Assembly (NCBI GenBank): GCA_964016885.1
Contig: OZ024761.1
Location: 13,330,001-13,394,000 of the forward strand
Length of the DNA: 64,000 nucleotides
Source: Eledone cirrhosa
Lineage: Eukaryota
Direction: 5' to 3'
The notes beneath the pieces are model-generated. The model searched no databases, had not been told where the DNA came from, and worked only from the letters and a program-made list of their open reading frames with translations. Shown piece after piece: positions 28,870-29,065 of this stretch. The position numbers and the translations under genes were made by a program. The stretch's first letter is position 1, and the number at the start of each line of letters is the position of its first letter.

Positions 28870-29065
28870 ACGGAGGAATTGTGGTAAGGAACCAGATGGA
28901 CCATAACGCACCAGAGTACTCAATACTTAGGGTAGTAGAGTGGGTAATAGGAGAGGGTATGACCCCGACGGCAGAGCTCAAGCCGTTTCGACGGCTATTT
29001 CTAGACTAGTCCAGAAATAGCCGTCGAAACGGCTTGAGCTCTGCCGTCGGGGTCATACTCCCTCC

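Follow-up and report, generated by a model that had tools for sequence, protein, structure and literature searches.

Background

A tail at only one end of the insertion, together with an inverted copy, has been described for Penelope-like elements of the Hydra clade (PMC8557442 and its preprint; these, PMC11167929 and PMC3846280 are cited throughout from the parts of their text available to us). This clade is diagnosed by DKT and RW[KR] signatures, a CxCx5C linker and CxxC/CxH residues (PMC8557442). In Poseidon PAc of Anolis, internal initiation occurs in vitro at two sites that bound the tail, and the protein nicks and extends both target strands (PMC11167929). The origin of the one-sided tail and of the inverted 5' copy of Penelope elements is presented as an open question in the available text of three papers (PMC11167929, PMC8557442, PMC3846280).

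In the genome of Eledone cirrhosa we identified a short motif, present twice in full-length elements resembling the Hydra clade, which lies just 3' of each of two sharp classes of insertion ends. Judged against the available text of PMC11167929, where internal initiation at two sites is already known, what appears new here is the motif with its duplication and the rule by which the arms of inverted insertions are paired. Literature searches, whose coverage excluded most subscription journals and the Repbase notes, yielded no report of the motif or its duplication, of the pairing rule or of Penelope twin priming. No description of the tail motif was found in the available text of PMC8557442, and the accessible parts of a retrozyme preprint (10.64898/2026.07.22.740005) and of PMC13282606 added nothing on ends.

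Identity of the repeats

The window, i.e. the whole 64-kb stretch analysed (OZ024761.1:13,330,001-13,394,000, from a genome of 3.0 Gb), is rich in (TA)n and in dispersed short repeats, many of which are palindromic. The repeats recognized in an earlier note, made from the letters of the window, bear hammerhead cores or 3' halves of them. Their family letters, A to G, are kept here, with B denoting the family at 19413; E2, E3, A2, H and J were added. From their diagnostic motifs and visible likeness to published proteins, we identify these short repeats as the 3' ends of Hydra-clade Penelope-like elements in (TA)n. The ORF of family D exhibits a reverse transcriptase (RT) with YRDD, followed by a YIG-containing domain (L101, L106, L126), and the RT part was seen in E2, E3, A2, G and J, of which the fetched loci ended before the endonuclease. 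SDKT (DKG changed to DKT) is present in D, E2, E3, A2 and J, and G exhibits ADKL in one broken copy. RWR, RWT, RWI or RWK, mostly RWR rather than RWK, is found in D, E2, E3, A2, G and J. A CNC-x5-C linker, CNLC-EE, LLNK and CKH were identified in D only, with no CCHH. The Neptune clade, our first guess, was rejected because D possesses CxCx5C and DKT, not CX2-5CxxC with a DKG-type signature.

Canonical hammerhead cores are present in copies of A, E, E2, E3 and G. The D hammerhead has its stems, with a core reading TTGANAA instead of CTGANGA in the copies seen (including L005, L019 and L071); its ribozyme activity may be dispensable or its fold non-canonical, though D is very abundant (12,894 genomic occurrences of its exact 29-nt core). 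Insertion into (TA)n was confirmed as well. An Rfam scan of the window gave, among the 150 matches listed, repeat-driven ones only, all below threshold.

The window also holds a broken Neptune-like Penelope element with DKS and CX2-5CxxC (ORF 36372-39140, minus strand). Family B (35618-35895 and 19413-19787) represents the ends of a Neptune-like element, with a tail of about 135 nt and an inverted arm. The RCTC motif described below was not found at these ends; a different hairpin, AC-rich on its 3' side and closer to Poseidon, stands about 5 nt past the tail-less end, and three sampled copies continue beyond the tail into one common sequence. Elsewhere, 39519-40400 (minus strand) resembles the 3' part of a LINE reverse transcriptase, with no Pfam match. 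Another hammerhead palindrome, flanked on each side by (TA)n and showing no tail in this copy, occupies 56541-56944, and a retrozyme-like pair of minimal hammerhead units in tandem, spaced by about 109 nt, lies at 58861-59027. Short MITE-like elements with terminal inverted repeats are found at 28357-28538 and 54079-54277.

Motif and predicted fold

The motif has the consensus RCTC-(stem-loop)-TH-GAGY-RC, and tail-less ends lie 2-8 nt before it. The pattern RCTC-3bp-loop-TN-GAGY has 53 matches in 464 kb, whereas five block-shuffled versions have 2-8; it is commoner than expected by chance. In a sample of 1.06 Mb it has 122 matches in 25 clusters, 44 of the 122 with a detectable inverted partner.

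When no upper-stem pairing was demanded, positions 1-3 were paired in 29, 25 and 20 of 32 cluster representatives, against 21.3, 15.3 and 12.6 after shuffling, a comparison that ignores relatedness and retains three probable non-element matches. The first upper pair switches between C-G (15 of the 32) and T-A (12). Above its 4-bp stem the motif measures anything from about 6 nt to more than 60 nt, a range of sizes better suited to a single-stranded fold than to a double-stranded site, and several second motifs form merely 0-1 upper pairs. The stem appears in the minimum-energy fold of all ten segments folded. Its z-scores lie between +0.7 and -1.5 in nine of them, G alone reaching -3.0; being no stabler than shuffled sequences except in G, the hairpin would need a protein to hold it.

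With its flanks, the 4-bp stem presumably resembles a tRNA D-arm. A tRNA-like repeat at L274:2200-2310 matches the motif pattern, which may reflect its origin or mimicry; of four loci scanned with ARAGORN, this repeat included, none gave a tRNA.

Positions of the ends

The earlier note placed the ends of inverted arms a few nucleotides before a stem-loop. Measured from the last base common to both arms to RCTC (by eye for C), its junction coordinates were reproduced to about 1 nt for D, E, E2, E3, A, F, G and C (Table 1), every junction being ambiguous by 2-6 nt owing to overlap with (TA)n. The degenerate motif of C does occupy the same offset as the others. The sharp peak of junctions just upstream of the motif, which that note had set as a test, was also found. 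Among paired D arms, 15 of 19 end exactly 5 nt before the motif, two at 6 nt, and two were mis-anchored. Ends placed by BLAST at -15 to -20 in D pairs were discarded as trimming at a subfamily-variable segment. Tail-less D copies begin their TA run 10-13 nt past a fixed anchor in 45 of 53 cases, this 4-nt range corresponding to length differences between subfamilies; seven outliers were inspected, and all have the same CC/CA end, running into impure repeat or other flank. Family A is more scattered: three pairs have arms ending 6, 10 and 11 nt ahead of the motif, and a fourth has an arm end at +2 through chance TA matching. In 12 of 49 tailed copies the fuzzy motif had been set too early, and the tail lengths measured from those placements are left out.

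The four D arms regarded earlier as solitary do share the site 1 end, at one cctat(a) point. Two of them are not solitary: the arm at 41274 has a truncated inverted tailed partner (41171-41229), and that at 47926 faces an 11-nt inverted tail-end remnant (about 47856-47866).

Table 1. Motifs, ends and arms in the window (arm end, last base common to both arms; gap, distance in nt from arm end to RCTC)
Feature	Position	Strand	Arm end	RCTC	Gap	Method
D motif copy 1: ACTC / 3-4 bp upper stem and loop / TT bulge / GAGT / AC	28916..28941	-	28947	28941	5	motif scan, predicted fold
D site 1 = TAT, before the motif; all tail-less D arms end here; overlap with (TA)n of 3 nt	28947..28949	-			5	
D tail; outer end = site 2	28870..28946	-				
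Tailed D arm body = 3' half of hammerhead ribozyme, truncated in loop II	28947..29008	-				
Inverted tail-less D arm, site 1 end into (TA)n	29007..29068	+				
Family E motif; palindrome 34155-34512	34122..34149	-	34155	34149	5	
Family E2 motif	43935..43956	-	43963	43956	6	
Family E3 motif	57704..57730	-	57738	57730	7	
Family A motif; palindrome 56944-57059	57066..57087	+	57059	57066	6	
Family F motif; palindrome from 57156	57493..57519	+	57489	57493	3	
Family G motif, GCTC/GAGC form, long upper stem; inverted arm to about 46073	45399..45434	-	45439	45434	4	
Family C degenerate motif (at 19865); palindrome from 19871	19845..19865	-			5	by eye
Family A2 motif	61545..61565	-				
Family H motif, absent from the earlier list	26066..26092	-				
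D-subfamily pair: tailed arm cut within motif and tail-less arm	41171..41274	.				
D pair: 11-nt inverted tail-end remnant and tail-less arm	47856..47926	.				
Solo tail-less D end at site 1	22041..22075	+				
Tail-less D arm, site 1 end, cut inverted partner	35019..35079	-				
Tailed D copy, motif at 42987	42940..43060	+				

A second motif beyond the tail

In full-length elements a second copy of the motif stands 2-8 nt past the tail end, between the hammerhead and the start codon. Lying beyond the tail end, this copy is not copied into insertion ends; in full-length elements the tail runs on toward the ATG, so that the sequence past its end can be read. The second motif was found in five of the six families with a recovered junction (D, E2, E3, G and J), with a variant in the sixth (A2). 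Thirteen of 30 D loci ran into the ORF, and all thirteen passed through the motif 2 region, which is intact in eight and point-decayed in five. Site 2 of D lies 3 nt before motif 2 in full-length copies; the window itself contains no copy of D motif 2. For G, the second motif was seen in the single locus, out of 30 unselected ones, that reached the ORF.

The full second motif and the RT ORF are present in 15 of 15 fetched E2 loci (39 genomic matches), and the second motif in most of 14 E3 loci among the matches listed (273 matches) and in 4 of 4 fetched J loci (followed among 100 matches listed, in a search dominated by (CA)n), J having more than 60 nt between the stem halves; the patterns for E2, E3, A2 and J demanded the first four letters (RCTC or RCWC) and left the second half unselected, so these figures indicate a consistent continuation and not its share. 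At the full-length junction of A2 the strict motif 2 was not found in 116 matches. The tail of A2 ends sharply and is followed, 7 nt on, by a GCAC/GTGC hairpin, possibly a compensated form of motif 2. One variant of the full-length junction of family F was searched, with no match. In J, unlike the other families, the tail is often followed by (CA)n ahead of (TA)n (L290-L309). The tails of G finish with ATT repeated a variable number of times, suggestive of slippage at the start of synthesis (L234-L263).

The contigs of one public sample, possibly not independent of this genome, exhibit two main (TA)n loose ends on a full-length D junction (L106:918 and 998), the first 5 nt ahead of the RCTC at 924, the second 3 nt ahead of that at 1002.

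The two motifs are 57-141 nt apart (78 in D), a spacing that tracks tail length, and the hammerhead GAAA precedes motif 1 by 43-64 nt (44 in D by hand count). With both distances variable and the ends staying at 2-8 nt, apart from the scatter in A, the ends follow the motifs and not the ribozyme or the tail length. Hammerhead cleavage was rejected as the source of tail-less ends, since the predicted D cut lies 17-20 nt upstream of site 1 and the distance from ribozyme to motif varies by 21 nt among families. The earlier note had derived both end classes, with and without tail, from one stem-loop; there are instead two motif copies, one for each class.

Inverted pairs

In one D subfamily searched genome-wide with patterns, 1716 of 1763 inverted insertions consist of one tailed and one tail-less arm, 20 having both arms tail-less and 27 both tailed. 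Such mixed pairs thus make up 97%, against at most 50% for independent choice. Unbiased D samples agree, with 48 of 50 pairs mixed and two unclassified. Among the 48 mixed pairs, the arm with the longer 5' reach is the tail-less one in 20 and the tailed one in 14; both reach equally far in 14. In several loci (L073, L074, L083, L092 and L093) the tailed arm ends within the tail and has nothing in common with the other arm, although deletions within palindromes could mimic such short tailed arms. The subfamily segment matches between the arms in 39 of 49 pairs against 8.1 after shuffling, a result that fold-back or later conversion could mimic. Loop II of the hammerhead, 60-70 nt before motif 1, is where most 5' ends lie.

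The D inversion points (window 28990-29010) are often at short palindromic words, suggestive of a strong stop or an annealing hot spot. A 3.9-kb inverted D insertion (L101:2818-6757) has both arms reaching the RT region, the tailed one being internally deleted.

Other hosts and published consensus sequences

Metagenome contigs searched by alignment yielded 26 loci. In all seven whose 5' region is complete, the hammerhead is followed by a motif, a spacer, a second motif and the ATG, one of the second motifs having GCTG. Comparison within the same contig or family places ends 2-3 nt before motif 1 (L264, L265 and L274 against L267) and 2-3 nt before motif 2 (L266), and the related loci L275 and L286 agree in end position. 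In L266, 11 upstream bases are common to both sites. A search of the metagenome contigs with a single protein gave no matches, nor did the alignment search of viral contigs.

We also checked by eye the published Hydra consensus sequences (six new ones, in PMC8557442 File S7 as available to us). The exact motif is present in Hydra-2_Amil and Hydra-2_Ajap. Hydra-1_Ajap contains two exact motifs, its 3' end abutting the first, and Hydra-1_Amil ends just short of the place of motif 1 in its relatives. Hydra-1_Crog and Hydra-1_Obim exhibit variants only. A motif-like match in a Naiad consensus, about 500 nt from its end, was taken as chance.

Proposed origin of the two ends

The sequences show the motif and its duplication, two sharp classes of ends, the pairing of one of each in inverted insertions, and a common subfamily of both arms. 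Probably reverse transcription starts twice on one RNA, each motif positioning one start, and each of the two nicked target strands serves as primer at one of them. The GIY-YIG domain would nick both (TA)n strands, and each hairpin would dock the element protein, RT starting at the AU-rich bases just 5' of it. On a single read-through RNA, the site preceding hairpin 1 would pair over 2-6 nt with one of the 3' ends and that preceding hairpin 2 with the other, a protein dimer probably serving both starts. The trailing cDNA would then read through site 1 and displace the leading one. Both cDNAs would stop, often in hammerhead loop II, and their 3' ends would be joined head to head, leaving a tailed arm and an inverted tail-less arm; a single successful primer would leave a solo tailed or solo tail-less copy.

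An internal start fixed by the stem-loop just upstream of it had been proposed in the earlier note. The junction peak and the second motif past the tail support this part of the proposal, and the role of the hairpin as start signal is suggested by comparison of sequences. The AT-rich template segment postulated to anneal to (TA)n does overlap its target, yet over 2-6 nt only. Several observations count against dual priming directed by the motifs: A2 has a sharp end without the strict motif 2, the hairpins are weak, some A ends lie 10-11 nt from the motif, and the motif-less Neptune-like family B has a tail and an inverted arm. Likewise, Hydra-1_Crog and Hydra-1_Obim have variants only, and Poseidon, which lacks the motif, starts without target homology (PMC11167929).

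A tailed and a tail-less arm of the same subfamily are also predicted if priming occurs once, at the tail end, and the cDNA folds back to copy itself, the endonuclease then cutting the DNA before motif 1. Resolution by the endonuclease has been suggested for the tail (preprint text of PMC8557442), and a D. virilis endonuclease requiring the tail for recognition is cited in PMC11167929. However, a folded-back arm cannot hold sequence that its template lacks, so the arm lengths disfavour this route: of 48 pairs, 20 have a tail-less arm extending beyond the tailed one on the 5' side, and the tailed arm of the several loci named above ends within the tail. The cDNA moreover lacks motif 2, so that one spacing rule would need to govern RNA at one of the sites but DNA at the second. 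We regard fold-back as unlikely. A motif-directed cut of the RNA at the AU-rich site before it, by a host or element nuclease, with ordinary 3'-end target-primed reverse transcription on the two processed RNAs, would also explain why the ends are sharp and keep a set distance from either motif; the 4-bp stem and its flanking purine are D-arm-like and could attract tRNA-processing enzymes. Two separate RNAs should, however, pair about randomly, not with one of each in 97% of cases, and in Poseidon the product size is independent of the RNA 3' end, uncut RNA being the main substrate (PMC11167929). Such processing thus seems improbable to us.

The motif might instead serve translation, promoter function or RNA export, the ends being set by AU microhomology to (TA)n and the tail being an old tandem duplication. 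Both sites are indeed AU-rich, the 11 common upstream bases of L266 are what a duplication would give, and A2 has its sharp end without a strict motif. Against this, many nearby TA and TAT words are unused and the offset stays at 2-8 nt over unrelated tails and hosts, which makes microhomology very unlikely to set the ends. Self-priming of antisense transcripts has been proposed for palindromes at inverted junctions and for intron retention (PMC3846280), and would make head-to-head palindromes. It predicts neither two sense-strand motifs 3' of both ends nor arms that overreach one another, and we give it hardly any credence here.

A motif of roughly 20 nt that predicts both ends across hosts makes the tail and the inversion directly testable. 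It would name the likely RNA ligand of an RT sister to telomerase, and RT-based gene writing could use it to set an internal start by sequence. Curators would gain a rule for element boundaries inside (TA)n. A bolder proposal, which we hold only tentatively and as somewhat doubtful, is that the motif is a portable docking signal of tRNA D-arm type, used from cnidarians to echinoderms and in this host. Its two copies would programme an obligatory twin-priming by a dimeric RT and account for the one-sided tail and 5'-inverted copy of all Penelope-like elements, and a start might then be placed at will in any RNA.

Comparison with known systems

The earlier note drew analogies with telomerase and with the hepadnaviral epsilon element. 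The boundary element of telomerase is a stem 5' of the template that ends synthesis, and epsilon supports protein-primed initiation inside its bulge. The likeness is that a small RNA stem fixes the working place of an RT. The analogies are nonetheless loose, since our motif lies 3' of the ends and of the putative start, motif 1 is read through in tailed copies, and the start proposed here would be DNA-primed, with two motif copies. In the twin priming of L1, the second strand of the target serves as primer at an internal place of the RNA already being copied, which leaves a 5' inversion. The internal site of L1 is variable and the cDNAs are mostly non-overlapping, whereas here a motif would fix the site, and the two arms overlap.

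The closest known elements are those of the Hydra clade (PMC8557442), which share DKT, RW[KR], CxCx5C, CxxC/CxH around E and N, with GIY-YIG at the C-terminus, as well as a hammerhead (of canonical core here in copies of A, E, E2, E3 and G), (TA)n targets, 5'-inverted copies and a tail on one end. The tails differ in length, being about 60-140 nt here and 30-40 nt in the published elements (PMC8557442). Poseidon PAc is similar in its two end classes bounding the tail, its AT-rich target and its upstream hammerhead (PMC11167929). Its start, however, is at an AC-rich stem-loop within the ORF, without target homology, whereas our ends lie just 5' of two motif copies upstream of the ATG, with 2-6 nt of target overlap at both sites. 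According to the text on Fig. S1, PAc is without the RCTC motif, and the available text gives no explanation of inverted arms (PMC11167929). Taken with the sequences of other hosts, these comparisons suggest that the motif is likely a clade-wide, duplicated RNA start signal, and thus a variant of the known initiation at two sites.
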